From the IMG/VR virus record IMGVR_UViG_3300008055_000088: DNA of 39,609 bases. One strand, given 5' to 3'. This stretch comes from a virus. The position numbers and the translations under genes are program-made. The first letter of the stretch is position 1, and each line of letters opens with the position of its first letter. The notes beneath the pieces are model-generated. The model did not search any database. It was not told where the DNA came from and worked only from the letters and a program-made list of their open reading frames with translations. Of the stretch, positions 1-20,772 are shown piece by piece.

Positions 1-99
1 CAGCCCATGGAGCCATGAGCGTGGAATCTATCGCAGCGTTAATGAGTGCCACATATTGCTGGATGCCTTGGTAGGTCTAGGCAGTTTAAACGCCTCAAC
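1..99. repeat. Terminal direct overlap, identical to 39511..39609 (circular-closure signature)
   Basis: Base-for-base identity of the first and last 99 nt, read directly. The overlap lies inside an ORF. Confidence 0.95.
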
Positions 100-142
100 T
101 GGCGATTGGCTCAAGAATCGCGCAGAGGGTCTTAATAGATAG
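1..142 (+). CDS. C-terminal end of the Amidoligase_2-like protein (continuation of 38861..39609 across the circular junction)
   Basis: The frame starting at nt 2 is open from the window edge to TAG 140..142. It is in register with the ORF left open at the 3' end of the window. Confidence 0.8.
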   Translation, partial: SPWSHERGIYRSVNECHILLDALVGLGSLNASTGDWLKNRAEGLNR

Positions 143-244
143 CAGGGCAGCCTGCCCCAAGTGGGCTAAGCGAGGGAGCGTTACCCTCGGCAGGCACGAA
201 CGCCACGGAAATACCGTGAGCGTTTAAACGAAAGGACTGGAACC

Positions 245-385
245 ATGATTGAGTTCTATATCTACAGCAAGAACGGTACTTATCTCAGCACAAGCAAAGC
301 CAAAGACTTGGCAGAACTTGCCCAAATCAAAGCAGCGCTAGAAAACAACCAGCAAAAAATCACCATCATAAAGGTAGGTGTTTAA
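245..385 (+). CDS. Hypothetical small protein (46 aa)
   Basis: ATG 245 with AAAGGA 9 nt upstream. The stop TAA lies inside GTTTAAAC (380..387). Too short for the ORF track. Packed tightly between flanking same-strand genes. Confidence 0.45.
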   Translation: MIEFYIYSKNGTYLSTSKAKDLAELAQIKAALENNQQKITIIKVGV

Positions 386-387
386 AC

Positions 388-483
388 ATGGAATACGAAT
401 ACCTCAATGGCACCGCGATGCTATTGGTAGCGCTGCTTTTATGGGCGCTATACAAGGCACGAATCAGTGGCAGAAACGAATAA
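388..483 (+). CDS. Hypothetical small membrane protein (31 aa, one hydrophobic helix)
   Basis: ATG 388 lies 3 nt after the previous stop. Translation is MEYEYLNGTAMLLVALLLWALYKARISGRNE, with AAGGTAGG upstream. Confidence 0.4.
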   Translation: MEYEYLNGTAMLLVALLLWALYKARISGRNE

Positions 484-487
484 AAAG

Positions 488-571
488 ATGACTGAAAATG
501 ATGATTGTTTAAACAACACCGTCATTTGTGGCGACTGCTTGCGACCTTCATGCAAAGGTTGTGAGCAGTAG
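488..571 (+). CDS. Hypothetical Cys-rich micro-protein (27 aa, CxxC...CxxC, C-terminal Glu-Gln)
   Basis: ATG 488 to TAG 569..571. Translation is MTENDDCLNNTVICGDCLRPSCKGCEQ. No clear SD. Confidence 0.3.
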   Translation: MTENDDCLNNTVICGDCLRPSCKGCEQ

Positions 572-623
572 CCGATATGATATACTTGGACAACTAACCA
601 ACTAAAAGACTGGAGAATAGAAT

Positions 624-1508
624 ATGTGTGGAATAGCAGGATATTGCTTAGATGCTAAGCATTACTCACGCATCAGCACTAGCGACCTCGCAGGGCAGAT
701 GTTGTACGACATAGAACACCGTGGCATGGATGCAACGGGCGCTGCATGGATAAACCCACGCAACGGTAGGCGCGTTATCAGCAAGGCAGCAACCAGTGCC
801 AGCAAATTCGTGCCAAAGGCAGGCGCTAATCTTTGCGATGGCGCAACGACTGCCATCTTGCATACGCGCTTTGCAACCCAAGGCTCGCCAACTGTTGCAA
901 GTAACAACCACCCAATCCCACGCGGTAAAATCGTACTCACTCACAACGGACACATCAGCAACGATACCGAATTGTTTAAACAACTAGGTGTGCCCCGTCT
1001 TGGACAAGTAGATAGCGAGGCTGCTGCTGCTCTCATTGCTTTCAGCAAAGACAAGCCATGGGAAATCTTGACCCAACTCTATGGCACCGCAGCCCTTGCA
1101 TGGGTTACCCAACACGACCCGCGCTCACTGCACTTAGCCCGTGTCAATTCATCACCGCTATGGCTAGGGCAATCTAATCATGGCTCCCTGTTCTACGGTT
1201 CTACCAAAGAAACCGTGGAGAACGCTGCAATCATGACCGATTCAGAGATTGATTGGTTCCATGATGCAGCCGAGGGGGAGTACTTCAAGGTACGCGATGG
1301 CGCAATCATTGAGTACCAAACTTTTAAACCGAGCAAGCCTGAGCCTCGCTACTATGGCTACGGTGGAAACTGGTGGAACGAATACGACACGGTAACAACT
1401 ACACCGCGTGCTTATGCAACCGAACTTGATTATCATGGCAAATACAATCAACGCCGAGCAGATAAGTATGCACGCTGGTGGGAGGATAAAGACGAACTGA
1501 ACTTCTAG
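624..1508 (+). CDS. Class-II (Ntn-type) glutamine amidotransferase domain protein, stand-alone
   Basis: N-terminal MCGI (Cys2 nucleophile), plus HTRFATQGS, NNHP, LTHNGHISN and DSE motifs. SD TGGAG 8 nt upstream. A terminator follows. Confidence 0.85.
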   Translation: MCGIAGYCLDAKHYSRISTSDLAGQMLYDIEHRGMDATGAAWINPRNGRRVISKAATSASKFVPKAGANLCDGATTAILHTRFATQGSPTVASNNHPIPRGKIVLTHNGHISNDTELFKQLGVPRLGQVDSEAAAALIAFSKDKPWEILTQLYGTAALAWVTQHDPRSLHLARVNSSPLWLGQSNHGSLFYGSTKETVENAAIMTDSEIDWFHDAAEGEYFKVRDGAIIEYQTFKPSKPEPRYYGYGGNWWNEYDTVTTTPRAYATELDYHGKYNQRRADKYARWWEDKDELNF

Positions 1509-1547
1509 TTCTGTACAGGTACTAGCAACTCTCTACTGTTTAAACAG

Positions 1548-1571
1548 CCCCCGCTTCGGCGGGGGTTTTTT
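1548..1571 (+). terminator. Rho-independent terminator after the amidotransferase gene
   Basis: CCCCCGC-TTCG-GCGGGGG stem-loop followed by T6. It sits 2 nt after a GTTTAAAC (1538..1545). Confidence 0.8.
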
Positions 1572-1572
1572 A

Positions 1573-1728
1573 ATGTATGTACTGAAGTACATAATGCTCA
1601 CCGTGTTTAAACAACACAAGTATTTGCCGCCGCCACCGCCGTACCCACCACCACCGCCGCCAGACCTCCTGGAATTTATTGTTATGTGTTTAAACGACAC
1701 GCCGCCAGACCTTATCTTCAAATATTAA
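1573..1728 (+). CDS. Possible polyproline micro-ORF or leader peptide (51 aa)
   Basis: Translation is MYVLKYIMLTVFKQHKYLPPPPPYPPPPPPDLLEFIVMCLNDTPPDLIFKY. Same strand as its neighbours, no SD, starts right after the terminator T-run, and contains two GTTTAAAC copies. Confidence 0.25.
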   Translation: MYVLKYIMLTVFKQHKYLPPPPPYPPPPPPDLLEFIVMCLNDTPPDLIFKY

Positions 1729-1774
1729 ATTGTTTAAACAACACGAAAATTATTTTTATTTTTTCTGCTTAACA

Positions 1775-1802
1775 TTGTTGACTTTAAGATAACGAGTATG
1801 AG
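1775..1802 (+). promoter_or_regulatory. Candidate promoter for the second early operon (TTGTTG-16 nt-TATGAG), possibly giving a near-leaderless mRNA
   Basis: Hexamers sit at 1775..1780 and 1797..1802. The ATG at 1814 has no SD. Weak match only. Confidence 0.2.
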
Positions 1803-3569: not shown

Positions 3570-3754
3570 TGCAAGAATACCAAGAACTATTACAAGGATT
3601 ACAAAAGCATCTCATACTCAGTGGGCTTACCTTCAACGCAGAGATAGCCACTGAACCAATTATTACTAGACCAGTACGCGTTGACATACTGGTTGCCTCA
3701 GTTATGGAGTATCTAAATGCGACAGGTTATTCAAATACGACCAAAATTTCATAA
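3569..3754 (+). CDS. Hypothetical protein (61 aa)
   Basis: ATG 3569 overlaps the TAA of the upstream gene (TAATG). The ORF track offers an alternative start at 3560. Confidence 0.5.
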   Translation: MQEYQELLQGLQKHLILSGLTFNAEIATEPIITRPVRVDILVASVMEYLNATGYSNTTKIS

Positions 3755-4076
3755 GATACGCAACGCAATAGAAACGCGTGGGCGTAGGTACTACACACTT
3801 GTGTACAATCCAAACAACTTTAAAGATGCCAAGTGTGCTGGCGTACCAACGGAAAACTTTTATCCCCTAACGGATAAGTTTACCCCTGAACAGGAGCGCT
3901 ACATACGAGAGCGAATCTGTGGTGGTTGTCCAGTCATTGAGGCATGTGCCGAGTGGGGATTAGCCCACGAACGCTACGGTATATGGGGTGGCATGACCCC
4001 AGTGATGCGTGAAAAAGAACGCAGAAGGAGAGGTTGGGCATTGATTGACCCGCAGTTGAAAGACAGAGGAAATTAA
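3717..4076 (+). CDS. whiB: WhiB-like Fe-S transcription regulator
   Basis: Four Cys in WhiB spacing (C-x28-C-x2-C-x5-C: AKCAG...CGGCPVIEAC) followed by the GIWGG turn and a basic tail. Confidence 0.85.
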   Translation: MRQVIQIRPKFHKIRNAIETRGRRYYTLVYNPNNFKDAKCAGVPTENFYPLTDKFTPEQERYIRERICGGCPVIEACAEWGLAHERYGIWGGMTPVMREKERRRRGWALIDPQLKDRGN

Positions 4077-4137: not shown

Positions 4138-4276
4138 ATGAAGCAGATTTATCGCCAGTAATAATACGAATAGCCCAATCAAGTCCAGCGTTTAAACCTT
4201 TACACCACTCATCTTTCTCAGGTATCTTTGCATCTTCAATCTTGCTAACAAACTTATCTATCTGTGGGTCGCTCAT
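4136..4276 (-). CDS. Hypothetical small protein (46 aa)
   Basis: ATG 4276 overlaps the TGA of the kinase gene (ATGA). Translation is MSDPQIDKFVSKIEDAKIPEKDEWCKGLNAGLDWAIRIITGDKSAS. Confidence 0.45.
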   Translation of the reverse strand: MSDPQIDKFVSKIEDAKIPEKDEWCKGLNAGLDWAIRIITGDKSAS

Positions 4277-4809
4277 AGTTTAAACACATTGTGCATTAGC
4301 ATGAATACTTCATCAGATAAATCATCAAGAGTTCCATCGTTATAGAGGACTCGTTTAAACATGTGGTTATCCAAAGCGCGTTCACTGATATGGTCATTGA
4401 CTGCGCCATGGTTGTGTCTGTTTATACGCCACACTTCCCCATCTTGATTCTCAATCATGCGTGCTTCGTTAGGGAAGCGAACATCGGGTATAACAATGCG
4501 CTCACCAGTGGCAACCTGATTCAACAAACGCCACACCCAAACATCTTCATGAATTAACTTGCGACCAACTTCGGTACCCATAACTTGAAGCAAACGGCGC
4601 ACCTCATCTTTAGACTTGGCAACATCCCAACTATACATTTGTACTACCTCGTTTAAACGCATACCATCATGAAGAATAGGGTTCAATGCAAGTAATGCTT
4701 CACGAATACCATCAGCAAACGCTATGCGTTTAAACCCATAGTTAAGTACCAGTAGTTCTGCAACTGTATCCTTACCACTGCGAGCGTATCCGCTCAATCC
4801 GATAATCAT
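4273..4809 (-). CDS. Deoxynucleoside monophosphate kinase-like P-loop kinase
   Basis: N-terminal Walker A segment MIIGLSGYARSGKDT. Size and pattern are typical of phage dNMP kinases. Confidence 0.7.
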   Translation of the reverse strand: MIIGLSGYARSGKDTVAELLVLNYGFKRIAFADGIREALLALNPILHDGMRLNEVVQMYSWDVAKSKDEVRRLLQVMGTEVGRKLIHEDVWVWRLLNQVATGERIVIPDVRFPNEARMIENQDGEVWRINRHNHGAVNDHISERALDNHMFKRVLYNDGTLDDLSDEVFMLMHNVFKL

Positions 4810-4970
4810 TTATCCTCCTTGTATGGACTTTCCTTCTGCTCTTTATGACAATTCATACACCAATAGTAATCAACTGGGTCGTCAAAATTATCGCCCGCTA
4901 GTGTGCCAACCCAAAAGTGAAAGCCAAACAAACACTTCAAACGGTTATACCAATACCAAAGGTAAATCAC
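4806..4970 (-). CDS. Hypothetical small protein (54 aa, GTG start, Trp/Tyr-rich N-terminus)
   Basis: GTGA overlap with the sigma-gene stop and ATGA overlap with the kinase start. Fills an otherwise empty 160-nt gap. Below the ORF-track size cut-off. Confidence 0.4.
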   Translation of the reverse strand: MIYLWYWYNRLKCLFGFHFWVGTLAGDNFDDPVDYYWCMNCHKEQKESPYKEDK

Positions 4971-5656
4971 TCTTGCTCCTCCTGATTTCTAATCATCGCT
5001 CTTGATTCAGCATTGGAGCGAACGCGCCTGCGCCCACGCCACACTGGTGCCTCTCCACCTAATCTGTCTTGCAACTTATTCAGTGCCCGTTTAACACGCT
5101 TACGCATGGCTTCCTCAGTAGTTCCATAAGTTTCACCAAGGGCACCAAACTCCATACCGCCATTGGCATAGCGCATACGAAGTAAGTCTTTGTCTGTCTT
5201 GTTTAAACGGTCCAAGCCTGCAGCAATATCTGACAAAAGTGCAATGCGATTGCCACCTTCGGATGGCTTAGTGCTACGACTTATGTACTCATTGCTCATA
5301 TCAGGAGTATCTGTCCAGCCTTGGTGTGTCCATACATCACGCAATAGTTCATGCAACACCTCATGTGTGTAGTAAAAACTATCATTGATTGGTGCGCGAG
5401 ATAGATGCGAGCGCTCTTTGGCTACATACTTCTGTGCTTCATTATAGAAAGTCTTACGCAGTTTAAACTTTAGACTTTCCTCTGCACTCCATTGTTCTAT
5501 CTTGTGCCAGTGTTCTAATGCCCACAATGAAAGGTGCTGGTATAAATCATCAGCAGTTACAAGTCCACGGTGTATGCGATTAGCACGGGTTGCCACCTGC
5601 CTAGCCACACCATAAATAGTTTCCCAAACTTTGTCTTGGCTATCCATCAATGCCAC
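4967..5656 (-). CDS. Sigma-70 family (ECF-like) RNA polymerase sigma factor
   Basis: C-terminal region-4-like HTH (DKDLLRMRYANGGMEFGALGETYGTTEEAMRKRVKRALNKLQDRL) and a region-2-like N-terminal half. Confidence 0.65.
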   Translation of the reverse strand: MALMDSQDKVWETIYGVARQVATRANRIHRGLVTADDLYQHLSLWALEHWHKIEQWSAEESLKFKLRKTFYNEAQKYVAKERSHLSRAPINDSFYYTHEVLHELLRDVWTHQGWTDTPDMSNEYISRSTKPSEGGNRIALLSDIAAGLDRLNKTDKDLLRMRYANGGMEFGALGETYGTTEEAMRKRVKRALNKLQDRLGGEAPVWRGRRRVRSNAESRAMIRNQEEQE

Positions 5657-6185
5657 CTGTAATTAATTCAATAGGTACGCGCCAGCCATCTATTGAAGCA
5701 TCGGCGTATTCATCTATCATAAAATCATCAGCCTTAAATGAACCAAAGATTTCAACTATGGAATAATACTCCTCATCTAAAATCTTAACGCCGAAGATTG
5801 TTCTGCCTACATCCTTCTTCCAAAAAGGAATTGCGCTTTGAGTCCTTACAGTTCTAACTTCAAACTCACCCACATCAGGTATGTTCTTGCGCCTAGAGTG
5901 CAGTTCATTGGGATACCAAGGCACTGACCATGACAAGTTGTATTCTCTAGCCACTGCCCACTCAGCAACATTGGCTCTGATATTCGCAAGAATCTCAGGC
6001 TCTAACTTTCCAAACTTCTTACCTGCTGCATAGTTAGGTCTATCAATGGAACCAAATTTGGTGAGCCAACGCTCTACTGCCAGTGTGGTACACACCCGCA
6101 CTTCTTCTTGACTCAGTTTAACAATCACTTGTTTAAACACCCACTCGCTTTCGTAGTCCCTCTGCTCCTTCGGTAAGGAACACAT
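5640..6185 (-). CDS. Hypothetical protein (possible nuclease-like IPDVGEFEVR motif); start uncertain
   Basis: The ORF-track entry 5640..6377 is trimmed here. Its first ~65 codons overlap the TOPRIM gene out of frame and look non-protein-like. Candidate starts are ATG 6185 or GTG 6140. Confidence 0.55.
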   Translation of the reverse strand: MCSLPKEQRDYESEWVFKQVIVKLSQEEVRVCTTLAVERWLTKFGSIDRPNYAAGKKFGKLEPEILANIRANVAEWAVAREYNLSWSVPWYPNELHSRRKNIPDVGEFEVRTVRTQSAIPFWKKDVGRTIFGVKILDEEYYSIVEIFGSFKADDFMIDEYADASIDGWRVPIELITGGIDG

Positions 6186-6753
6186 CGTTAACATCGCAGT
6201 TGTCAGGCATGAACACGGGGAATACATTGTCCAATTCTCTTGAGAGGGTCTTTGCCATCTCTTTACCTGCGTTATCACCATCACAAAACAACATAATCTT
6301 TTCCCAGTCTGCAAGAACACGAGAGTAAAATGGTTTCCAGTTGTTAGCCCCAGGCAATCCCACTGCTGAGAAGCCAACTTGTGTAGCGATGATGGTGTCT
6401 AATTCACCCTCGCATATCACAAGGAAATCTGTATCACTACTAAGCGCATCAACATTGTAAATGTGTGTGCTTGCTCCAGGTCTTGATAGATACTTCGGAC
6501 CGCTATCGTTGTTTAAACTACGGAAACGAATATCAATCACACCCGATGGAGTGAGGTATGGGATAGCCAACTTACCGAGGTAAGGTTCATGTCCTGCTTC
6601 AGGATTCGCCACGAATCCGAGGCGGAACATACGCGCCGTTTGCTCCGTTATACCGCGATTCATTAGGTAAGGCAACGCTTCTCCTAGGCTTGTTGCGTAG
6701 TTCTCCGTTGCTTTCGCCAGTAATTCTCTCTGCGATTTTGAGAGCCTTGCCAT
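6133..6753 (-). CDS. DNA primase, TOPRIM/catalytic part (DnaG-like)
   Basis: Motifs ICEGELDTI, GLPGANNW and FCDGDNAGKE. Strong SD AAGGAG 7 nt upstream of ATG 6753. The stop TAA lies inside GTTTAAAC 6131..6138. Confidence 0.8.
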   Translation of the reverse strand: MARLSKSQRELLAKATENYATSLGEALPYLMNRGITEQTARMFRLGFVANPEAGHEPYLGKLAIPYLTPSGVIDIRFRSLNNDSGPKYLSRPGASTHIYNVDALSSDTDFLVICEGELDTIIATQVGFSAVGLPGANNWKPFYSRVLADWEKIMLFCDGDNAGKEMAKTLSRELDNVFPVFMPDNCDVNDVFLTEGAEGLRKRVGV

Positions 6754-6997
6754 AATCCACTCCTTCTTTTTTCATGATTAATGAATACACATCTCCTGCC
6801 ATGTCGCAGGCAAAACATCTGAAGCCACCATTGTCTATGTTTAAACGAGCCGACTTCACATGGTCATTGTGAAAAGCGCAACGAATTGATTGCCACCCTC
6901 CACGATTCTGAGGAATTACAAATCCGTAATGCTCAAGTACTTTAACTATGCTGTGTTTAGAGGTTGGGGAGGACATCACTGAGTTTCTGAACGACAT
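6599..6997 (-). CDS. DNA primase zinc-finger (CHC2-type) protein
   Basis: CAFHNDHVKSARLNIDNGGFRCFACDMAGDVYSLIM matches the CHC2 zinc-finger pattern. The ATG 6997 (GGTGA upstream) is preferred to the GTG 7006. Confidence 0.75.
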   Translation of the reverse strand: MSFRNSVMSSPTSKHSIVKVLEHYGFVIPQNRGGWQSIRCAFHNDHVKSARLNIDNGGFRCFACDMAGDVYSLIMKKEGVDYGKALKIAERITGESNGELRNKPRRSVALPNESRYNGANGAYVPPRIRGES

Positions 6998-7322
6998 AGG
7001 CTTCACCTGTCCCTTTGTTGCTTGCCTTGATAATCACCAATGGTGTAGGCGCAACTGTCAATCGCTTTGCAATACGGTAGTTCTCTGCCTCAATCTCAGA
7101 CTCACGAATCCAACCACTCAAATCAATGCGACCATCACGGCGTGGAGCCTTGGCTTCCACCACATAAATACCATTGACTCCAGGAACAAACACATCACCA
7201 ATGTCATTACGACCAGCACGAGGTAAACGCTGTGCGTTTAAACCTTGTTGCATAAAGAAATCAGCAAGGTCTATTTCCCATGCAGCACCCCTACGCTTGT
7301 TGGCTACTTGCTGACTTGGCAT
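6957..7322 (-). CDS. PD-(D/E)XK-type nuclease, possible Holliday-junction resolvase
   Basis: Pattern G-AAWE...GRNDIGDV...YVVEAKA. ATG 7322 with GGAG upstream is preferred to the longer track ORF. Confidence 0.55.
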   Translation of the reverse strand: MPSQQVANKRRGAAWEIDLADFFMQQGLNAQRLPRAGRNDIGDVFVPGVNGIYVVEAKAPRRDGRIDLSGWIRESEIEAENYRIAKRLTVAPTPLVIIKASNKGTGEAYVVQKLSDVLPNL

Positions 7323-8034
7323 CGCGTTCTCTCCTCTCTGCTGCCTCTGCTGCTGCCCAATACAGGTTGTAATAGGCTTCATCAAAAGCAAATCGTTTCA
7401 TGTGTTTAGCAAGCACACCAGTATGGGCATGAACAGGTATACCTGCAGCCTTTACCTTTCGGAAGAAAGAAATATCTTCACCGATAAATTTCTCTCCTCG
7501 TTCGTTGTTCTCGCCAAACCAAAACTGGTCAGGGAACTTATCGTTTAAACCCTTGAGTATGCTCTTGTGCATCAGCACTAAACCCATGCCTGCATTATCA
7601 ACCTTTACTATCTGATTCTTAGGTAGAGGATGAAGATAACTAATCTCATACTCATTGCCAGTTTCATTAAAGACACAAGGCATAGGCTGCATGAGTGAGC
7701 CTTCCATCTGCTTAGAGATGAAATAAACACCGCTTACTATAGGTCGGGCTACCTTGTCAGCAGCATCCCATAGACTCTTTAACATCTCTTTGGTTAAGAC
7801 AATATCTGAATCAACCCACAGCGCCCAATCGGTATTGACCTGCTGCCACATCTCAATGGCTGCTTGTCTTTGTCGGGCAATCTGATTACCTTGAACACGA
7901 ACAGCATTATTAACTGGCACACCAACGGATGCTGCATGTATCAGTGTATAAACCAAGCCCTCAGTAAACTTGCCATCAGTGGTGCCATTGTCGCACCAAA
8001 TAATGGAAAGCATTTCTTTATTACTATGCGCCAT
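7291..8034 (-). CDS. GT-A fold (family-2-like) glycosyltransferase
   Basis: N-terminal beta-strand LSIIWCDNG and a DxD-type motif WVDSDI. Size is consistent. Family assignment is from motif only. Confidence 0.5.
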   Translation of the reverse strand: MAHSNKEMLSIIWCDNGTTDGKFTEGLVYTLIHAASVGVPVNNAVRVQGNQIARQRQAAIEMWQQVNTDWALWVDSDIVLTKEMLKSLWDAADKVARPIVSGVYFISKQMEGSLMQPMPCVFNETGNEYEISYLHPLPKNQIVKVDNAGMGLVLMHKSILKGLNDKFPDQFWFGENNERGEKFIGEDISFFRKVKAAGIPVHAHTGVLAKHMKRFAFDEAYYNLYWAAAEAAERRERDAKSASSQQA

Positions 8035-8440
8035 GTTTCATACTCTTTTCTGAATTGTCTAAAATTTTCATTGCATGTTCGGCTAACTCTTTAAAGTTCT
8101 CCGACATAATAATTAACTTTCCTGCGATTTCTTCTCGGCACTCTCCTCCGTGTTCTTCCCCGAGATGAGTAGCAAGTTGCGCCACATAGTCAGCAAACTG
8201 GATTGACTCAAACCAGATGGCGGAAGGGTTGAAGATTTTATTTGTCGTTTCATCAACAAATTCCACAAAGTTTGGGAGTTCATTTATCAGTGCTTCCTTT
8301 ATTACTTCGGGTAGTTTTGCTTGGAGTATCGCCTCCTCCACCATCTTCGGTGTAACTGACAGTTCCTCCACTGAAAAGTGTTTCATGTTGTTCTTGGGTG
8401 AGTTCTTTGAACCGCCCTGTTTCTTTCTCCTGCCAAACAT
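8024..8440 (-). CDS. Hypothetical protein (138 aa)
   Basis: ATG 8440 with GGAG 7 nt upstream. Helical, acidic sequence. Confidence 0.6.
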   Translation of the reverse strand: MFGRRKKQGGSKNSPKNNMKHFSVEELSVTPKMVEEAILQAKLPEVIKEALINELPNFVEFVDETTNKIFNPSAIWFESIQFADYVAQLATHLGEEHGGECREEIAGKLIIMSENFKELAEHAMKILDNSEKSMKHGA

Positions 8441-8612
8441 AAGTTCTCCATCCCACTGTCCAAGTAAAATTCTTAGGTATAAACATTAACTGCGCTTTCA
8501 TATCTGTAATCAGTGTCTTAGTAGGCACGACTACATCCTCGCTGTCCACTGAGCCTACTACTTCGCCCATGTTTTCAACTACTCGTAGTTCCCAGTTAGT
8601 ATCTTTTGTCAT
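8280..8612 (-). CDS. Hypothetical protein (110 aa); 3' 160 nt overlap the next gene out of frame
   Basis: ORF-track entry. Only the part 8441..8612 is unique, so the true end is uncertain. Confidence 0.45.
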   Translation of the reverse strand: MTKDTNWELRVVENMGEVVGSVDSEDVVVPTKTLITDMKAQLMFIPKNFTWTVGWRTYVWQEKETGRFKELTQEQHETLFSGGTVSYTEDGGGGDTPSKTTRSNKGSTDK

Positions 8613-8625
8613 TTATTTCCTTTCA

Positions 8626-9405
8626 TTACGGTGCAACTAAATCTTTAATCTGCATACTTGCAGGGTCATAAGCAAGCCATACTGGTGTTGCGCCATTGGC
8701 ATCGGCTGGTCCATATCGGTTCTTCACAGCACAGACACCCATTGATGCAAGTTGTCCATGAACTGTAAGTATTAATGATGGAGTCTGAGCAATTTTTCCA
8801 TGCAGTGCAGAGCGTGGTGGGCAAGGATTGCCATTAACGCCTTCACTTGTATGGTGGCAAACAACAACAGCAGCGCCAGTATCTCTAGCCCACCACTTGA
8901 GTTCACGCATGAGAGTGCGTAATCCGCCCCACTCATCTTGTCCATCAAGGGTTACATCTACAGCGTTATCAAGCACGATAAGTTCAACATCTTTACCAAG
9001 TCGCTCACGAGATGCAAGGATTGCATCCTCAATATCTTTAAGCGTAGGTGCTGAATCAAACTCCCACATGATGTGGTCAGCAGGCTTGAGCATTTGTGCT
9101 GCCCACTCCCTATCTGCTTCCATCATTGGTTCAACTTCTGCTTGTGACCTACCAGTTAACATCGCAAGCAAACGCAAACTCATAGTATGAGAGTGTGTAT
9201 CTGCCGAGATGTAAAGTGTTGGTACTTGCACATGCACTGCAAGTGACAGAGCAAGTGTTGATTTACCAGCCCCTGGAGGACCAGCAATCATGCTCACCTC
9301 GCCCCGTCTAAACGCTATTTGCTGCTCAAGCAGAGAGCGCCACACTGTTGGCAGTGTTGCACCCCCTGCTGATGCAGTACGAATAGCGCGAGATAAGAGG
9401 CGCAT
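8626..9405 (-). CDS. DnaB-like / RecA-fold replicative helicase (ATPase domain)
   Basis: Walker A GPPGAGKST and Walker B LIVLDNAVD. Sits in a primase-proximal replication module. Confidence 0.7.
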   Translation of the reverse strand: MRLLSRAIRTASAGGATLPTVWRSLLEQQIAFRRGEVSMIAGPPGAGKSTLALSLAVHVQVPTLYISADTHSHTMSLRLLAMLTGRSQAEVEPMMEADREWAAQMLKPADHIMWEFDSAPTLKDIEDAILASRERLGKDVELIVLDNAVDVTLDGQDEWGGLRTLMRELKWWARDTGAAVVVCHHTSEGVNGNPCPPRSALHGKIAQTPSLILTVHGQLASMGVCAVKNRYGPADANGATPVWLAYDPASMQIKDLVAP

Positions 9406-9408
9406 GAA

Positions 9409-9801
9409 CTATACGGTTACTTTGTTTTGGCAAGCCTGTCCCTGTGGTTTAGGGCAAGCGTAGAACGCCTTATATGGGCGACCTGTTGCCTTAGCAATAC
9501 CTGCTGGTACAAAGCGCATAGGTCCACTACCACAAGAACAATCAGGCGCTCCTGTTGCAGGTGCTGCTTGAGTTGGGCGTGGTACCGCAGTGGTACCTTG
9601 TATTGGTACTGAATTTGGGAAAGCATCCTTGACAACTGCCATACCTTCAACAGTTTTCTCAAGGTCAACTAACGCAGCAATGCGCTGTGTAAGTTGGTCA
9701 AGCAATAAATCAAGTTCAGCACCATCTTGGGCACGAAGGTTAATCAACATGCCATCTTTCTTGGTCTTGAAGTTAATTTGGATTGGTGTGTTCTCACTCA
9801 T
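9409..9801 (-). CDS. Hypothetical DNA-binding protein with a C-terminal Zn-ribbon (topoisomerase C4 / GRF-like)
   Basis: CSCGSGPMRFVPAGIAKATGRPYKAFYACPKPQGQAC at the C-terminus. Pro/Ala linker. Replication-module context. Confidence 0.5.
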   Translation of the reverse strand: MSENTPIQINFKTKKDGMLINLRAQDGAELDLLLDQLTQRIAALVDLEKTVEGMAVVKDAFPNSVPIQGTTAVPRPTQAAPATGAPDCSCGSGPMRFVPAGIAKATGRPYKAFYACPKPQGQACQNKVTV

Positions 9802-10627
9802 CTGTATCTCCTAGTTCGGGGTATTTATGTGATTCGGAACCATTTACTGCATAGCAAGCATGATTAACAGAACATGTACCGCACATAAATCCTGGTTGCG
9901 GTATGAATATGTTGTTGTCAACAGCAATCTTAAAGCCTTTAACCTGTGAGGCTAAACGCTTTTCAGTGTAGTGTGTTAAGTCTACTGGTTCAGTTAACTC
10001 ACCAGTACGAGCCATGAAGTAAGCACCCTTAACAGGGCGAATACCCATAGCCTTCTCGCACATAATCGCGTATGTGCCTAGTTGTGTATAGGTAACGGGT
10101 GGTTTACTAGAAGTCTTTATGTCCACAACAATTAGTTCACCAGCAGGTGAAACCATAAGTCGGTCCAAAAATCCTTTCATTAATACACCACCGATTTCTA
10201 CATTAAGTTCAGTTTCAATGGCGAACTCACCACCTGATAATTGATATGGCTGGTATCCACTATCTTGTCGGAACTGAATCCAAAAATCCACCATCTTGGG
10301 TCCATTTTCCAACCACCATGATGCATCCTCTTTGTTGGGATACGCCTTAGTAGCCCTGCCACCAGCACGGAACGGCATGCCGTTGTCAGCAAGACGATAG
10401 TTCTCCTCCCATCGTGCAGTAAATACTGCAGTAGGGTCAAAGTTATCGGGATTTGTGTCGTATATCTCTGTCGCTTCATGTAAAGATTTACCCCCTACAA
10501 GCCAGTAGGATGGGTTCTCAGCGACTTTCTGTATGCGGGTCAGGTAATATGCCCAGCCACAATTAAGCCATGAACTCATGGCACTGTGGGAGATATAGCC
10601 TTTCCCAGTCTTTTCTTCAAGTGTCAT
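9794..10627 (-). CDS. Cas4/RecB-like PD-(D/E)XK exonuclease with a Fe-S Cys cluster
   Basis: N-terminal Cys (WLNCGWAYYL), VVDIKTS (D/E-x-K), QLGTYA, and C-terminal CGTCSVNHAC. Confidence 0.8.
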   Translation of the reverse strand: MTLEEKTGKGYISHSAMSSWLNCGWAYYLTRIQKVAENPSYWLVGGKSLHEATEIYDTNPDNFDPTAVFTARWEENYRLADNGMPFRAGGRATKAYPNKEDASWWLENGPKMVDFWIQFRQDSGYQPYQLSGGEFAIETELNVEIGGVLMKGFLDRLMVSPAGELIVVDIKTSSKPPVTYTQLGTYAIMCEKAMGIRPVKGAYFMARTGELTEPVDLTHYTEKRLASQVKGFKIAVDNNIFIPQPGFMCGTCSVNHACYAVNGSESHKYPELGDTDE

Positions 10628-10752
10628 ATTTCTCCTTTGCAGGGGCGAGTGTATATGTACCTCACTCCTCTATTCGGCGACACGCCGAGAGAACTACAAG
10701 GTTGTAATTAAAAAATCAGTATACTCCTGTTCGTGCAGAACGGGCTAAGTGT

Positions 10753-10968
10753 ATGAGTTTGCTGAAGCGTAAGCGGAAGCAAAGCCAATTAAAGCACAGT
10801 TATCGTGGTATTCCCACTCATGTATGTCCTTGCGGTTCTCAACTTTTTAAAGTCGCGTGCATGTTTGAGGATGGCGAGATTGCAATGTGGTTTACTGAAG
10901 CAGAGTGTGCCTTATGTGGCGCTGAATTGACAGCCCCAACTCCGCTTGATAAAGTTGAAACGCTATAG
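10753..10968 (+). CDS. Small Zn-ribbon protein (71 aa), isolated rightward gene
   Basis: CPCG...CALCG motifs. The only + strand ORF between 4077 and 38684. Followed by its own terminator. Confidence 0.55.
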   Translation: MSLLKRKRKQSQLKHSYRGIPTHVCPCGSQLFKVACMFEDGEIAMWFTEAECALCGAELTAPTPLDKVETL

Positions 10969-11010
10969 CACTTGGGGAAGTGTTGTAGTGGTACTACTCC
11001 TTATCAGACA

Positions 11011-11068
11011 AAAACAAAAAAGCCCCCGCTCATCAAGAAATTTCTTGACGGCGGGGGTTCTTTTGTTT
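11011..11068. terminator. Bidirectional rho-independent terminator
   Basis: A-run, then CCCCCGC (11023..11029), an inner palindrome TCAAGAAATTTCTTGA, GCGGGGG (11051..11057) and a T-run. Convergent genes lie on both sides. GTTTAAAC follows at 11065. Confidence 0.8.
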
Positions 11069-11081
11069 AAACAGTATTAAG

Positions 11082-11267
11082 TTATTTTACTCTACCGAAT
11101 TCGGCAGCCGATGGGTCCAACCACTTCAACACAGGACCAAGGAAACCCGCAAGGGCAGCCACTCCTAGTGTTTTAATGTCTGTTTCACCAGCGAGGTAGA
11201 GTGCGATTGCAGCAGATGCTGCAGCACGGAACCAGGTTAGCGATACTTGCTTTAGTTGTTCCAGCAT
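11082..11267 (-). CDS. Holin-like small membrane protein
   Basis: Two hydrophobic segments. Immediately downstream of the endolysin. Confidence 0.5.
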   Translation of the reverse strand: MLEQLKQVSLTWFRAAASAAIALYLAGETDIKTLGVAALAGFLGPVLKWLDPSAAEFGRVK

Positions 11268-11798
11268 TTATTTACCTTTCTTGTTTGCCAAACCATGTAC
11301 CTTGCAACAAGTACATACCAATACTTCAGCCTTGGCAGGCTTTTTCTTAGGTGCTGAACCGATGGCTTCTGCCACTATTTGCTTGGCTAGGCTTGGTTGA
11401 TTCTTCCACCAAAACCAAGGGCTGGTATCGCCAGCGTACTCAGGTCTGATAGAAACATGGAGGTGTTTTGTATGCGGATTTTGACCCGTATACTTTCGGT
11501 CACCTTGCTTTGCATGTTGGCGTGACCAAATCTTACTATTGAATATGAGATAACTAACTCTGTTATCTTCTTTGAGGCGTTGAAAAATATCTGAACAGTC
11601 AATACCGTTCTTTGGGTCATGGGTTAAATCTACCGCAAGACCTGTGTTGTGGTCTGAGTTAGGACTTAGTGCCAAATGTGCAATGGAAGGGAGTAAACCG
11701 TCTGATGCTTTCTTGCGTAGGGGGGCAAGAGCAGTCGCCTGGCGTAGCATGGACAATGCAGCAGGGCTGGCAGACTTTGCAACTTTGGGTTTGGTCAT
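11268..11798 (-). CDS. Endolysin, LAS-superfamily (M15-like) zinc peptidase
   Basis: H-x6-D (DHNTGLAVD) and H-x-H (HLHVS) metal-ligand signature. Flanked by two small membrane proteins. Confidence 0.6.
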   Translation of the reverse strand: MTKPKVAKSASPAALSMLRQATALAPLRKKASDGLLPSIAHLALSPNSDHNTGLAVDLTHDPKNGIDCSDIFQRLKEDNRVSYLIFNSKIWSRQHAKQGDRKYTGQNPHTKHLHVSIRPEYAGDTSPWFWWKNQPSLAKQIVAEAIGSAPKKKPAKAEVLVCTCCKVHGLANKKGK

Positions 11799-11801
11799 CG
11801 C

Positions 11802-12005
11802 TCATTTCCTCAATAGTTCTTTGACTAAATCAGTTAATAGGTCAACTTTATCTTCTAGTAAATTAACTTTATCTTTAAGGCTAGAACCACCATTGGGTCT
11901 TAATTCATATAGGTAATGCTTGACCATCCAGCGCACAGCGCCAGCAAGTCCAGCAACTAAAGTTAATATGGCTACGGCTAAGCCAGCCCAATCAGCAGGT
12001 GTCAT
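11802..12005 (-). CDS. Lysis-associated membrane protein (N-terminal TM plus coiled coil)
   Basis: TM segment WAGLAVAILTLVAGLAGAV, then LKDKVNLLEDKVDLLTDLV. First gene of the lysis cassette. Confidence 0.5.
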   Translation of the reverse strand: MTPADWAGLAVAILTLVAGLAGAVRWMVKHYLYELRPNGGSSLKDKVNLLEDKVDLLTDLVKELLRK

Positions 12006-12023
12006 GTTCTTATCCTTATATGT

Positions 12024-13994
12024 TTAAACGACAGTACGAGCAGTAATCTGGAGAATTCCACCGTAGCCTGAGAAAGCGCCATCAGATGGACTTGTGCGGG
12101 TAAAAGTTACCTGCTCAATCACTGCCTCTGTTGGTTCTCCACCAGCAGTAAAATCTTGGATGATGATTGTTTCGCCTTGTGCTTCCATTTGTTCTAAGGC
12201 TTGGAGTCTACCGAGCGCATAACCTGGGAAACCCATAATGTTTTTATGGCGGTCACGCTCGGAATCAAAACAAAAGACAGGAAACTGAACAACACGAGCG
12301 CGGGTAGGAGTAGGCAAAGCCTTAACAGAGTAACCGTAAATAATAGCGCCAGTCGTGGCAGTCGTATCGTTACGATTGAGGCGGAACTTAAATTGCGCTT
12401 CAACATTAACATCCTCATAAACGGAGGATAAGTCATAGTCATAGTCCTCTGTGCTTCCTTGGGTTACAGTACGAAAGGCTGAATCCACTCCATTATCAAC
12501 GCGGAAAATATCAATATCACCTTGCAATGTTCCTTCGGTGCGTAGTTTTATACGCTTCCATGCTTTGTTTTCAAGAGTTTCATAACGGATAATACCTGTT
12601 GTTAATTCACCTGATTCAACTAATTCTGTAGCATGTTCAATGAATAAGCCATCACCATTAACACAGAAGGCTAAGCGCCCAGTAATAGTAAGTGCTACAC
12701 CTTCTACTTTACCTGTTACGCTTTCAGCATATACATCAGTTGCATAAGCATATCCACCATTTTGCAGTGGTTGACCTAAATCAACTCGGTAAATTCCAGA
12801 GTAGCCACCAATACCAGAGTCAACTCCAGCATATATGTATGAGCCAGTAGCACTCATTTTGAATACACCAAGTGAGGTTTTAAATACAAGCGGTCCATAG
12901 GACAAATCGCCAACCTCATTAGCAATAGCAACACGCAAGCCTTGGCTAGTGCCAAGGATTACATAGGTTCCTAAGTAGCCAAGTAGTCCAGTAATCTGCT
13001 CATCATTAGGAAGCGAAATGACAGTAGTCATTGTATTTAGCGTTCCATCATTAGCAACAGTTATTTTAAATACACTGCCTTGATTACCAGAAAATCCACC
13101 TACATAGATTGCTGCACCTGATTCAGCAACGGCTCTAAAAGTATATGCAGTAGGTAGTGTAGTACTACCGTTAACTGCAGTAAGAGTGCTTAGGTTTATG
13201 GATGAGCCAGTGTTTTTATTTATTTCATACACAAATGTATTGTTAGCAGTGTTATGAAAAGCAAGTATAAAACGATTCTTAACATATCCAATAGTGCCAT
13301 GAACTGCATCAGCAGTGTTGATTGCATAATCCTGATGTATGGCAGGGGAAGTTGCATCAAAGGAATAGCGCCAAACCTTTGTGGGGGTAACCATCATTAG
13401 GTCATTACCGCCCATGGTTACAGCAATAATACTTTCAGTAATGTCGGTGTTAGTTAGTATTGTACTTTCTGTTAAATCGCTTACTCTAATGCGAACCACG
13501 CGAGCAGCCTCAGTAGATGCGTACTTAACCAAGATTAGATATTCAACGCCACCAATTACCGTATTAAAAACACGGCTATCTCCTGTTGCTGCTTCTTGTA
13601 ATACTGTTCTACGCAGCAAAGATATTTGTCCAGGAGTCCAAGGGTTAATACCTATTGAATCATAGAAACGAAAGCGTGCTTCTTCTAGCGTGCCAATTAT
13701 AGGTTCCTGATAGGTAGAGCCTGCACCAAGATGAAATGATGATTGGCTTCTAATCCAGTAGCCAGAACCAGAAAGCGACTGCTCGCCTGGGTCACGGAGT
13801 TGGTCCACACGCTGAGTACGAAACTCTGCAGTCTGCCTACGGTATGGAGTGTTATCAGTAATGGCATAGATGAAAGGCATACCACCGATAGCAACATCGT
13901 ATTTATAGGTAGTTGGGTCGTAGTATGCAGAGATGCGACCCGATAGGTCAATGATTACGCGTTCGGATATATCAGGTGGTCTACTGCCTGCCAT
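12024..13994 (-). CDS. Large tail-associated structural protein (656 aa)
   Basis: Position at the end of the tail-fibre block. Beta-rich sequence. The stop TAA lies inside GTTTAAAC 12022..12029. Confidence 0.6.
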   Translation of the reverse strand: MAGSRPPDISERVIIDLSGRISAYYDPTTYKYDVAIGGMPFIYAITDNTPYRRQTAEFRTQRVDQLRDPGEQSLSGSGYWIRSQSSFHLGAGSTYQEPIIGTLEEARFRFYDSIGINPWTPGQISLLRRTVLQEAATGDSRVFNTVIGGVEYLILVKYASTEAARVVRIRVSDLTESTILTNTDITESIIAVTMGGNDLMMVTPTKVWRYSFDATSPAIHQDYAINTADAVHGTIGYVKNRFILAFHNTANNTFVYEINKNTGSSINLSTLTAVNGSTTLPTAYTFRAVAESGAAIYVGGFSGNQGSVFKITVANDGTLNTMTTVISLPNDEQITGLLGYLGTYVILGTSQGLRVAIANEVGDLSYGPLVFKTSLGVFKMSATGSYIYAGVDSGIGGYSGIYRVDLGQPLQNGGYAYATDVYAESVTGKVEGVALTITGRLAFCVNGDGLFIEHATELVESGELTTGIIRYETLENKAWKRIKLRTEGTLQGDIDIFRVDNGVDSAFRTVTQGSTEDYDYDLSSVYEDVNVEAQFKFRLNRNDTTATTGAIIYGYSVKALPTPTRARVVQFPVFCFDSERDRHKNIMGFPGYALGRLQALEQMEAQGETIIIQDFTAGGEPTEAVIEQVTFTRTSPSDGAFSGYGGILQITARTVV

Positions 13995-14096
13995 GTTGCT
14001 CCTTAAATACTAGCGTTTCTGCTGTGTCAATATGGTCATCTATGTCTTTAAAGATAGGGAATATGTCGCTTACTAGGCTCATTGTCCCCTACTTTC

Positions 14097-14447
14097 TTAC
14101 TCTATTGGTAGTACTAGTTCATCCCAAGATAGTGTTTCTTCATTCCAACGCCATAAACCTTCTGTTGGTCTAGGAGTAGGAGGTTGCCAGTCGTGGTTAG
14201 CATCAAGGCTCCACGATGGATATGGTTGCGGTGCAACAAATACATCTGCTACTGGGTCATAACTATAACCTATGCCAGCATATTGCTTGCGGATATTGTT
14301 ATTGTATGAAGTGCGTTTGCAGACTTGCCCTCTAAAATTACCATACCAAGTTTCTGTATCTAAACCTTCGATAAGTTCAGTTTCATCTATTCCAGTAATA
14401 ACCTCAGTTACTAAATTGTTCTCATCTAAAAATGCGTAATGTGCCAT
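14097..14447 (-). CDS. Hypothetical protein (116 aa)
   Basis: ATG 14447 overlaps the upstream TAA (TAATG). The track offers a TTG at 14456. Confidence 0.6.
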   Translation of the reverse strand: MAHYAFLDENNLVTEVITGIDETELIEGLDTETWYGNFRGQVCKRTSYNNNIRKQYAGIGYSYDPVADVFVAPQPYPSWSLDANHDWQPPTPRPTEGLWRWNEETLSWDELVLPIE

Positions 14448-15391
14448 TATGCCCAACTCACATTCCCTGTGCCAGCAGTTATTGTTGCTACTTTATAAGA
14501 ACCATCTGTTGCAGTTGTTCCTGTTAGACCTGCTCCAATAGTAATTGTTCCTAAAGCAGTTAAGTAACGCAAAATAACTACGCCCGAACCACCTGCGCCA
14601 CCATTACCTTGATTACCTGAGCCCCCGCCAGCACCGCCACCAGTGTTAACTGTTCCACCAACACCATTTGTTGGGTTACCATCACCACCGTTTCCACCAC
14701 CACCTGCGCCACCAGTACCAGCAGGATTATCGTAAGTAGCCTGAGTGTATCCACCGCCACCACCACCGCCAGCATAAGTTACAGATGAGCCTGTAATAGA
14801 AACCGCAACTCCTGCGCCGCCGTTACCAGAATTGAGAGTAGTATTTCTGTTTACACTCGTTCCAGCCGCACCTGCACCGCCACCGCCGCCTGTTGGAAAA
14901 CCAGTAATGCCACTATTAGTAGAATTTCCACCTGCAAAACCTTGATTCGCGGTTCCAGCGCCACCTGTTTTAGTGTTATTTTCAGACGAAGCAGCGCCTC
15001 CGCCAGAACCACCAGATGAGCCATTTTGGGTTAATCTTCCGCTTTTACCACCACCTGTAGAAGTAATGGTTGAAAATACAGAGTTAGAGCCATTTGTGTT
15101 ACTGTCAACACTTGTGCCAGCAGTACCGCCTCCACCAACGGTAACTGTATAATTAGTGTTTAAATTAACCGTAAGGCTTGTTTCAAGTGTGCCACCACCA
15201 CCAGTTGCTGTAACTGACGAGCGCAATCCACCCGCTCCTGCACCAGCAGAGTAATCTTTGTTTGCTCCACCGCCTCCTGCTACTACAAGAAAATCAAGGT
15301 TTGGGGCAACAAAAACATCTCCTGCACGCATACTCCCATAATTAGTTCTGCCTTTTATACTACTGGCAGATAATTTATATACAGGTGTCAC
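14447..15391 (-). CDS. Glycine-rich tail fibre / minor tail protein
   Basis: Long GGxGxxG-type Gly-rich tracts of the kind seen in actinophage tail proteins. Confidence 0.6.
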   Translation of the reverse strand: MTPVYKLSASSIKGRTNYGSMRAGDVFVAPNLDFLVVAGGGGANKDYSAGAGAGGLRSSVTATGGGGTLETSLTVNLNTNYTVTVGGGGTAGTSVDSNTNGSNSVFSTITSTGGGKSGRLTQNGSSGGSGGGAASSENNTKTGGAGTANQGFAGGNSTNSGITGFPTGGGGGAGAAGTSVNRNTTLNSGNGGAGVAVSITGSSVTYAGGGGGGGYTQATYDNPAGTGGAGGGGNGGDGNPTNGVGGTVNTGGGAGGGSGNQGNGGAGGSGVVILRYLTALGTITIGAGLTGTTATDGSYKVATITAGTGNVSWA

Positions 15392-15705
15392 TAGGAAATC
15401 TCCACTCCAGAGATATGGAAGTTTACACCAGTAGTAGAAGCAGAGCCAGTAATGGTTGCTGCTGGGTTAGTAGGTGGGATAACCTGCTTCATATCAATTA
15501 CCGTAGTGTCATAGGCACCAACAGTTACTGATGATGCTGAGGTTACAGTAGCAAAAGCCAGTGTAAAGTTAGCAGTAGCAGCAGTAGTATTAGTCACCAA
15601 CATATTGGTGATTACTGTAGTAGTTGTAGTATTAGGTTGTGTGTATAGGGTTGTGCTTGTTGTTGCTGCTGCTGTTCTAGCCAGCGTTTTAGATGTTACA
15701 GCCAT
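15391..15705 (-). CDS. Hypothetical Thr/Ala-rich structural protein
   Basis: ORF-track entry, start-stop coupled with the downstream gene. Confidence 0.55.
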   Translation of the reverse strand: MAVTSKTLARTAAATTSTTLYTQPNTTTTTVITNMLVTNTTAATANFTLAFATVTSASSVTVGAYDTTVIDMKQVIPPTNPAATITGSASTTGVNFHISGVEIS

Positions 15706-15759
15706 TAGTTACTGTACCTTTCTGTTTGTTTGTTTGTGAACTATCTTGAGGGATTGTGC

Positions 15760-15963
15760 CTAGCCTAAAAGCAACTTGGCTTCATCGGCACTTATGCCTA
15801 GTTTTTCCAAAAGAGCCTCTTTTGCTGCTGCCTTTTCTTGCTTCTTAATTTGCTCGGCTTTGGCATTTGCCAAATCTTTTTGGTGTTGAGCCAATTCTTC
15901 TGCCGTCATATCTCTTTTAATTATTTCGCCAGTTTCAGTATTGTGAATAACTATTGTTGTCAT
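15760..15963 (-). CDS. Hypothetical coiled-coil protein (67 aa)
   Basis: ORF-track entry, coupled to the upstream fibre gene. Confidence 0.5.
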   Translation of the reverse strand: MTTIVIHNTETGEIIKRDMTAEELAQHQKDLANAKAEQIKKQEKAAAKEALLEKLGISADEAKLLLG

Positions 15964-18703: not shown

Positions 18704-18711
18704 TTTCTACC

Positions 18712-20425: not shown

Positions 20426-20427
20426 GG

Positions 20428-20764: not shown

Positions 20765-20772
20765 GATTCCTC

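Follow-up and report, generated by a model that had tools for sequence, protein, structure and literature searches.

The window analysed here is a 39,609-nucleotide (nt) stretch of DNA from an uncultured phage (IMG/VR record IMGVR_UViG_3300008055_000088). The locus under study is a gene cassette in which a small basic protein of 57 amino acids (aa), hereafter p57, is followed by an Amidoligase_2 carboxylate-amine ligase and a stand-alone class-II glutamine amidotransferase (GATase). The rightward module was arranged in the order p57, ligase, three small open reading frames (ORFs), GATase and terminator. An exact terminal duplication of 99 nt was present (1..99 and 39511..39609), and the window is a circular, circularly permuted or terminally redundant phage genome with a unit of 39,510 nt. 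The duplication is most simply read as the assembly overlap of a circular or circularly permuted genome. Because the unit is circular or terminally redundant, the start of the window is arbitrary and falls inside the ligase gene, which is therefore split by the window coordinates. The features listed in an earlier sequence-only reading of this DNA were recovered where it had placed them or a few bases away, with the right lengths (Table 1).

The conservation of the gene order was evaluated in viral contigs. A scan with the GATase yielded 46 loci with 58–99% identity, and the order p57–ligase–GATase was kept in 40/40 contigs that reached far enough upstream, the other 6 of the 46 being cut by a contig end. 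A scan with a p57 profile yielded 80 loci, 75 of which were newly fetched. The ligase started 3–36 nt 3' of p57 in 75/75 of these, the GATase followed wherever the contig had room, and the gene that encodes the large terminase subunit (TerL) lay divergently upstream of p57. All three genes are under purifying selection. The ratio of non-synonymous to synonymous substitution rates (dN/dS) was 0.08–0.22 for p57 and 0.10–0.25 for the ligase, the latter being above that of the GATase (0.035–0.12). Hence, the synteny and the purifying selection on all three genes establish the p57–ligase–GATase trio as the conserved unit, and the synteny excludes chance adjacency of the cassette genes. Co-conservation of the ligase and the GATase, which the sequence-only reading had made a touchstone of its proposal, held in the related contigs and in distant phages. 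Furthermore, p57 is the obligate upstream partner of the ligase gene and a feature specific to this clade.

The ligase gene was a hot spot of divergence. When the window was compared with its close relatives L010, L006 and L003, the ligase had 60–80% nucleotide identity, whereas the flanking p57 and GATase genes had approximately 90–97%; in the same comparison dS was 1.2–1.5 for the ligase and 0.3–0.48 for the flanking genes. Because the ligase was far more diverged than its flanks, this pattern indicates that its alleles are mosaic and were replaced through recombination within the cassette. The ligase profile was also run on cellular genomes, in which 8 loci were found, 0/8 with an adjoining GATase. 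One of them was a 1.5-kb contig binned with a Microbacteriaceae metagenome-assembled genome, the ligase of which was 52% identical.

Table 1. Position, strand and characteristics of the features of the cassette and of the surrounding genome
Feature	Position in the window	Strand	Remarks
p57, 57-aa basic protein	38685..38858	+	GGAGG 8 nt 5' of start; no named family
Ligase, Amidoligase_2 carboxylate-amine ligase	38861..39609 (residues 1-249), then 100..142	+	joined ORF of 263 aa
Ligase gene, 3' end	1..142	+	stop codon 140..142; 1..99 repeats 39511..39609
GATase, stand-alone class-II (Ntn) glutamine amidotransferase domain	624..1508	+	294 aa; starts MCGIAG; domain residues 1-235
46-aa ORF	245..385	+	accessory; tblastn matches only in loci with GATase at least 95% identical
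31-aa single-pass membrane peptide, NG[ST]A..LLxWALYKAR	388..483	+	accessory; 18 distinct forms conserved
Cys-rich mini-protein, CLN..CGDCLxxxCxGC	488..571 (27 aa, ATG 488) or 467..571 (34 aa, GTG 467)	+	
Extended -10-like element	574..587	+	consensus TGTGATAYACT; TATGATATACTT in the window; about 40-50 nt 5' of GATase start
Strong intrinsic terminator	1546..1567, T-run to 1573	+	9-bp stem, 7 G-C pairs, 4-nt loop
Non-coding control region	37836..38684	.	about 850 nt; between leftward TerL and rightward module
WhiB-like factor	3717..4076	+	Pfam E=4e-13
Sigma factor	4967..5656	-	scan of window ORFs
Glycosyltransferase	7291..8034	-	scan of window ORFs
2221-aa protein	26793..33458	-	weak ADP-ribosyltransferase-toxin-like stretch, residues 889-975

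Predicted folds and active sites of the trio

The ligase was assigned to Pfam PF12224 (Amidoligase_2) with 69.1 bits against a cut-off of 22 (E=6.8e-19) and to PHROG 2443, 'amidoligase' (phrog_2443, E=1e-23); PF12224 was present in 120/120 ligase homologues among the matches listed. No sequence relative was found in the PDB by phmmer. The AlphaFold2 (AF2) model had a predicted local distance difference test (pLDDT) value of 92.7. In Foldseek, its best matches were YbdK (1TT4, 1R8G), glutamine synthetase (GS) and Dop/PafA, and gamma-glutamylcysteine ligase (GCL) was also matched, with E of approximately 1e-5 to 3e-4 and a query-normalised template modelling (TM) score of 0.42–0.52. The model thus presents the ligase as a stripped-down member of the GS/GCL/PafA-Dop fold. 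The residues E8, E10, D42, E50, H85, H87, R128, R161, E177, R179 and H181 were invariant across 42 homologues. This acidic/His/Arg pattern fits an active carboxylate-amine ligase, the activity that would be expected of the protein, and these residues presumably bind metal and ATP. Membership of the YbdK/GCS2/EgtA family was considered and rejected, with 16.5 bits against the TIGR02050 cut-off of 176.4.

The GATase exceeded the Pfam thresholds of GATase_6 (61.7 bits vs 27) and GATase_7 (32.2 vs 25) and was below that of GATase_4 (18.8 vs 23); it also matched PHROG 14519 (phrog_14519, E=2e-45). The pLDDT of its AF2 model was 88 overall and more than 90 in the core. The best Foldseek match was 1XFF, the isolated glutaminase domain of GlmS with bound glutamate (E=2e-17, target-normalised TM score 0.78), followed by PurF. 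Both family assignments of the sequence-only reading, Amidoligase_2 and class-II GATase, are therefore upheld by the hidden Markov models (HMMs; PF12224 and GATase_6/7) and by the predicted folds. Its description of a GATase without a synthase domain was likewise borne out: no second domain was detected by Pfam, and only residues 1–235 folded as a domain in the model. The scores against the GlmS, PurF and AsnB equivalog models were 31.8–71 bits, compared with cut-offs of 267–418. Orthology with EgtC was rejected (TIGR03442, 19.7 bits vs 218.65). The parallel with EgtA/EgtC that had been drawn from the sequence accordingly survives at the superfamily level and fails at the family level, on the EgtC and YbdK models alike, the nearest relatives of the GATase being GlmS and PurF.

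The catalytic residues of the GATase were compared with those of GlmS. C2, R33, H80-T81-R82, T85, N108-G109 and D130 were invariant in 39 homologues, and their equivalents in the GlmS alignment were Cys1, Arg26, Arg73, Thr76, Asn98-Gly99 and Asp123. The nucleophilic Cys, C2, directly followed the initiator Met. R82 and D130 were of the GlmS Arg73/Asp123 type, which grips the alpha-carboxylate and the alpha-amino group of glutamine, and N108-G109 corresponded to the oxyanion hole. Because C2, R82, N108-G109, D130 and the other invariant residues match GlmS, the pocket should accept glutamine, or else a gamma-glutamyl amide whose alpha-amino acid head is free. Beyond the core, residues 244–267 were predicted to be disordered and residues 267–287 to form a helix, and the protein ended in DKDELNF. 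The C-terminal helix Y..RRA.KYA.WW was conserved (residues 268–294; window 1425..1505). Moreover, 92/114 full-length homologues ended in Phe, with Leu, Met or Phe at position -3 and acidic residues before it (e.g., DELAF, EELPF and DSHLF). The acidic tip recalls the acidic, Phe-ended partner-docking tails of SSB and T7 gp2.5, which is a matter of resemblance only.

In p57, the residues K14, Q15, T17, R18, L19, K21, V22, C24, D27, Y29, I30, R32, R35, T37, G42, P44, I45, C46, P47, C49 and E55 were invariant in 12 sequences. The three invariant Cys give the protein a zinc-ribbon-like appearance, and it has a basic KQTTRLRKV motif. A near-invariant Glu was situated 1–5 residues from the C-terminus, and two p57 variants were without it. 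Matches were obtained to PHROG 6361 and 34373, both annotated as of unknown function, and no informative match was obtained in Pfam, NCBIfam, PADLOC or a PDB profile search. None of the three proteins matched the anti-phage defence HMMs of PADLOC. A single ORF comprising p57 and the ligase was observed in one contig (L104, approximately 150..1400), in which a 1-nt indel lay just 5' of the usual stop codon relative to sister sequences ending ...SLREDV*. This ORF could be a true fusion or stem from faulty assembly, and it was set aside as weak Rosetta-stone evidence.

Genome context, control signals and small ORFs

A leftward block (4273..37835, minus strand) encoded a deoxynucleoside monophosphate kinase, the sigma factor, a primase, the glycosyltransferase, a DnaB-like helicase and an exonuclease, together with a tail fibre, the major capsid protein, the 2221-aa protein, a portal protein and TerL. 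Farther along the rightward module were DUF7249, DUF3846, a signal-peptide-bearing SLT transglycosylase and the WhiB-like factor. No DNA polymerase was recognised among the window ORFs scanned, and Rfam and tRNA scans gave no match. TerL was closest to that of Streptomyces podophages, at approximately 50% identity. The host is likely an actinobacterium, because the phage carries a whiB gene, has this TerL similarity and finds the nearest cultured relatives of its enzymes in Arthrobacter phages; the actinobacterial host of the sequence-only reading is accordingly plausible. The contig with the 52%-identical ligase, binned with Microbacteriaceae, points the same way. No cultured phage related to the window at the near-DNA level was found. 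In genome size, G+C content (approximately 44%), WhiB, sigma factor and glycosyltransferase, the genome recalls the freshwater Planktophila actinophages (PMC10202952), a likeness by description only; the gene set so likened to freshwater actinophages also counts the 2221-aa protein.

The control region (37836..38684) had no conserved ORF, and the sigma-70-like matches in it were weak and did not exceed the number expected by chance. Between 38130 and 38640, it contained long inverted repeats and the repeat families D1–D8, which were diverged direct repeats spaced approximately 110–130 nt apart, each with a copy of the palindromic 8-mer GTTTAAAC (a PmeI site). Five such sites were located in the control region, at 38192, 38316, 38523, 38568 and 38619. 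The extended -10-like element before the GATase was read as TTGTGA-16-TATACT with an upstream TG. The TGTGATAYACT positions were invariant in 13 loci, the GATases of which were as little as 58% identical, and the element occurred as a single copy in the window. This putative element may give the GATase its own promoter, separate from that of the ligase, so that a single transcription unit for the whole cassette is not assured. In the spacer between the ligase and the 46-aa ORF (143..244), several short hairpins without a T-run were observed, one at 143..159 and the others by eye.

Of the three small ORFs between the ligase and the GATase, the 31-aa transmembrane peptide motif was present in 24/66 distinct ligase–GATase intervals. 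The Cys-rich peptide was present in 39/66 and missing from 27/66; across its 24 distinct forms the Cys pattern was conserved and the C-terminus varied. It was considered as a Pup-like tag, since the window form ends in Gln, and was rejected on the variability of the C-terminus and the intervals without the gene. Homology with the zinc ribbon at the C-terminus of long GATases (LUZ24 gp19 and the Alcaligenes protein) was also considered, and only the generic CxxC...CxxC was common to both. The window ORF was a shortened form of a 65–67-aa protein of relatives. On comparison of window 488..571 (site at 507) with L003 9751..9954, L002 7119..7316 and L025 9742..9939, the short form corresponded to the long form after loss of what lies between the two GTTTAAAC sites inside it, at the CLN and RLN codons. 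This suggests that GTTTAAAC sites can serve as breakpoints for recombination or deletion.

The same 8-mer was the commonest of the genome, with 41 copies in 39.5 kb, and TGTTTAAACA with at most one mismatch occurred in 24 copies vs 3.1 expected. Of the 41 sites, 33 lay between 38192 and 7543 (through the origin), where they clustered in the control region, in the rightward module and in the replication module of the leftward block; the structural genes had almost none. This bias was shared by 10 related loci, including the most divergent. The sites could be binding, recombination or modification sites. A role as gene-boundary markers was not supported (5/33 sites near boundaries vs 4.0 expected). 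Past the terminator, 1573..1800 comprised a C-rich low-complexity tract, which reads as PPPPPYPPPPPP in a spurious ORF and has four GTTTAAAC sites flanking it. This segment was hypervariable or replaced in close relatives, with 0–37% identity in 60-nt windows at 1611 and, for L010, at 1671.

Proposed gamma-glutamyl chemistry and rival explanations

GS, GCL, PuuA and PafA activate the gamma-carboxylate of glutamate, and to our knowledge every characterised enzyme of the ligase fold does so. In the PuuA/PuuD and EgtA/EgtC pairs, a GS-like ligase makes a gamma-glutamyl amide and an amidohydrolase then removes it; gamma-glutamyl cyclotransferase (GGCT) likewise cleaves gamma-glutamyl amides. Because the ligase superfamily activates the glutamate gamma-carboxylate and the companions of the cassette in other phages (GGCT and RimK-like ATP-grasp proteins) act on glutamyl linkages, the ligase is read as building a gamma-glutamyl-type amide on an amine and the GATase as hydrolysing gamma-glutamyl amides, to which, by analogy, a probability of about one half is given. 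In this scheme, ATP would be used by the ligase to activate the gamma-carboxylate of glutamate, which would be joined to an amine of a host metabolite or macromolecule, and p57 would belong to the ligase as an adaptor or a subunit. The GATase would then take hold of the free gamma-glutamyl head, with a thioester formed on Cys1 and the amine released. The GATase step would process or reverse the modification made by the ligase, possibly on a separate transcriptional schedule, and a futile cycle would be averted by a step in between or by a separation of the two in time.

The make-and-hydrolyse reading is supported by the family and fold assignments with their invariant GlmS-type residues, by the obligate synteny and the purifying selection on the trio, by the recurrence of the ligase–GATase order in unrelated phages, by the Firmicutes prophages in which the position of the GATase is taken by GGCT and by the separate promoter-like element at the GATase. 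Several points weigh against it. If the ligase and the hydrolase work on one and the same bond, the cycle would be futile without an intermediate step, a separation in time or a difference in substrates. The GATase is nearer to the domains of true amidotransferases (GlmS, PurF and AsnB) than to the stand-alone hydrolase EgtC, and a domain of that kind fits equally well the role of ammonia donor discussed below. Moreover, the window is without GGCT, an ATP-grasp protein and a second ligase, so that what is concluded from larger cassettes may not transfer to it. In the literature searched, no experimental function, substrate or biochemical data were found for any member of the cassette.

The proximity of the GATase to GlmS, PurF and AsnB in sequence and fold, with all glutamine-binding residues invariant, would suit a split glutamine-dependent amidotransferase, in which the GATase passes ammonia to the ligase and a target carboxylate is converted to a carboxamide by the logic of MurT/GatD or asparagine synthetase B. 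The D-Glu of the peptidoglycan stem peptide, meso-diaminopimelate or another acid, for example, might be the target. The conserved C-terminal helix and acidic Phe tip of the GATase could dock on a partner such as the ligase, modification of cell-wall peptides has been proposed for the cassette (PMC5498523; PMC10580990), and the signal-peptide-bearing SLT transglycosylase shares the rightward module. In other phages and prophages the GATase is replaced as partner of the ligase by GGCT, which cannot donate ammonia, and if free glutamate is the substrate of the ligase, the two reactions cancel. We also know of no GS/GCL-fold ligase that is fed ammonia by a GATase subunit, which speaks against this arrangement, as does the independent recombination of the ligase and GATase alleles in close relatives, which is unexpected for a co-adapted channelling complex. 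This explanation is regarded as unlikely. Alternatively, each enzyme might act by itself on free glutamine, glutamate or small gamma-glutamyl compounds, so that nitrogen of the host is diverted during infection as an auxiliary metabolic function. Such a role has been proposed for phages (PMC10945688; for OM43, PMC10580990), and the GATase pocket fits free glutamine. The ligase is far under the housekeeping YbdK/GCS2 threshold (16.5 vs 176.4 bits) and depends on a phage-specific 57-aa partner, and its mosaic, fast-evolving alleles, together with the protein-binding-type tail of the GATase, look more like a host-interaction module. An auxiliary role in nitrogen or glutamate metabolism is thus held to be improbable.

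Protein modification was considered in two forms. The sequence-only reading had likened the cassette to pupylation, and the likeness stands for the superfamily of the ligase, the model of which matches the Dop and PafA structures. In a pupylation-like scheme, the ligase would attach p57 or the Cys-rich peptide to host proteins by way of a glutamate, with the GATase maturing the tag or taking it off; p57 is small, always directly 5' of the ligase and has a near-invariant Glu close to its C-terminus, and the host is probably an actinobacterium. What did not stand is the tag, since none of the Pup type, ending in a conserved Gln or Glu, was found: the Glu of p57 is not C-terminal and is missing from two variants, and the Cys-rich peptide has a variable C-terminus and is missing from 27/66 relatives. 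Moreover, the invariance of Asp130 in the GATase implies that the alpha-amino group of the substrate is free, which it would not be in a protein-borne C-terminal Glu, and Dop is equalled or surpassed by YbdK and GS as a match to the ligase model. This scheme is therefore very improbable. The trio could also be a reversible system for modifying proteins or macromolecules, with p57 (near-C-terminal Glu) as targeting subunit or tag, the ligase as writer and the GATase as an eraser recruited through its tail to a replication or repair protein of the phage or its host. Little credence is given to this arrangement; if it were true, the mosaic, fast-turnover ligase alleles would be the mark of an arms race for the target. 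The purposes considered for the cassette were host takeover, counter-defence and the exclusion of other phages.

Relation to documented phage cassettes

According to the papers describing the cassette, the functional idea reportedly originated with Iyer et al. 2009, and the system was thus predicted more than 15 years ago. The ligase–GATase pair had been described before, as the core of the phage amidoligase/class-II GATase cassette, and an Amidoligase_2 gene adjoining a same-strand class-II GATase and kept across relatives was found in the window. The sequence-only reading had treated the pair as more novel than is warranted by its repeated description (PMC5498523; PMC10580990; PMC3890496; PMC5513430). 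A 'peptidoglycan modification cassette' is conserved in RIO-1-like (RIO-1/PSA-HP1), phiEco32, 7-11, LUZ24, PaP3, tf and CW02 phages (PMC5498523, which cites Hardies et al. 2013). The cassette is also carried by LUZ24-like phages (PMC3890496), by Arthrobacter cluster AL phages (PMC5513430) and by OM43 phages, for which it is listed as an auxiliary metabolic function, as well as by over 30 viral genomes from metagenomes (PMC10580990). In Clostridium (Firmicutes) prophages, the ligase is paired with GGCT instead of the GATase (PMC11318856), and a Planctomycetes phage with ligase, GATase, GGCT and glutathione-synthase-like genes has been proposed to carry an auxiliary set for nitrogen metabolism (PMC10945688). 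Cassettes are widespread among phages and occur in those of Proteobacteria, Firmicutes, Bacteroidota and Actinobacteria. PaP3 was the sole relative found with timing data: its ORFs 22–56 are middle genes (PMC4707531). Because PaP3p44 and PaP3p47, which are listed among the cassette homologies (PMC3890496), fall inside this range, the PaP3 homologues at approximately ORF43–48 would, by extrapolation, be of the middle class. The sequence-only reading had taken the cassette for immediate-early, as the very first genes, a timing that is conjectural; the start of the window is an artefact of assembly.

As in the cassettes of the LUZ24, PaP3, phiEco32, RIO-1 and OM43 type, the Amidoligase_2 gene of the window is directly 5' of a same-strand class-II GATase among non-structural genes. 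In LUZ24, the set comprises gp16 (COOH-NH2 ligase), gp18 (amidoligase), gp19 (GATase), gp21 (RimK-like ATP-grasp) and gp22 (GGCT), and the order ligase then GATase was also found in an Alcaligenes phage and in Vibrio Zobellviridae phages with similar gene sets. In contrast, the window has the pair only, without the second COOH-NH2 ligase, the ATP-grasp protein and GGCT: none of these was found in the window by tblastn with the LUZ24 and Edmundo proteins, or in neighbouring genes by Pfam and PHROG scans. Furthermore, its GATase is 294 aa rather than approximately 395–510 aa, and p57 and the acidic Phe-ended tail are additions. The closest cultured relatives were the Arthrobacter Laroyevirus phages (Laroye, Salgado and Edmundo), with 36–37% identity over approximately 230 residues for the GATase and 27–29% for the ligase; in Edmundo, gp96 (GGCT), gp97 (ligase) and gp98 (GATase) lie in a row. 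The Laroyevirus GATase is likewise short (approximately 295 aa), and the host is likewise an actinobacterium. Unlike the window clade, these phages have GGCT and a GATase without the Phe-ended tail, and their ligase carries an N-terminal extension of approximately 85 aa, with a weak sub-threshold helix-turn-helix match, where the clade has the separate p57.

Beyond phages, the ligase resembles YbdK/GCS2, GS and PafA/Dop in predicted fold and in catalytic-type acidic/His/Arg residues, and it is far smaller (263 aa vs 350–500). The N-terminal glutaminase domain of GlmS and PurF was the best match to the GATase in sequence and structure, with common catalytic and glutamine-binding residues, whereas the GATase has no fused synthase domain and is far below the equivalog cut-offs. 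EgtA/EgtC, whose logic is to make and then remove a gamma-glutamyl amide, share two superfamilies with the cassette and fail as family models, and no EgtB- or EgtD-like genes were found among the window ORFs scanned. The features specific to the clade are the p57 partner, the acidic Phe-ended GATase tail, the promoter-like element of the GATase and the mosaic ligase alleles. What the finding contributes by itself is a further lineage with some anatomical detail, in a kind of system that was already known. With three genes, more than 100 natural sequence variants, an obligate partner and a docking-type GATase tail, the clade has the smallest form of the cassette among those compared and is a convenient minimal system for finding its target.

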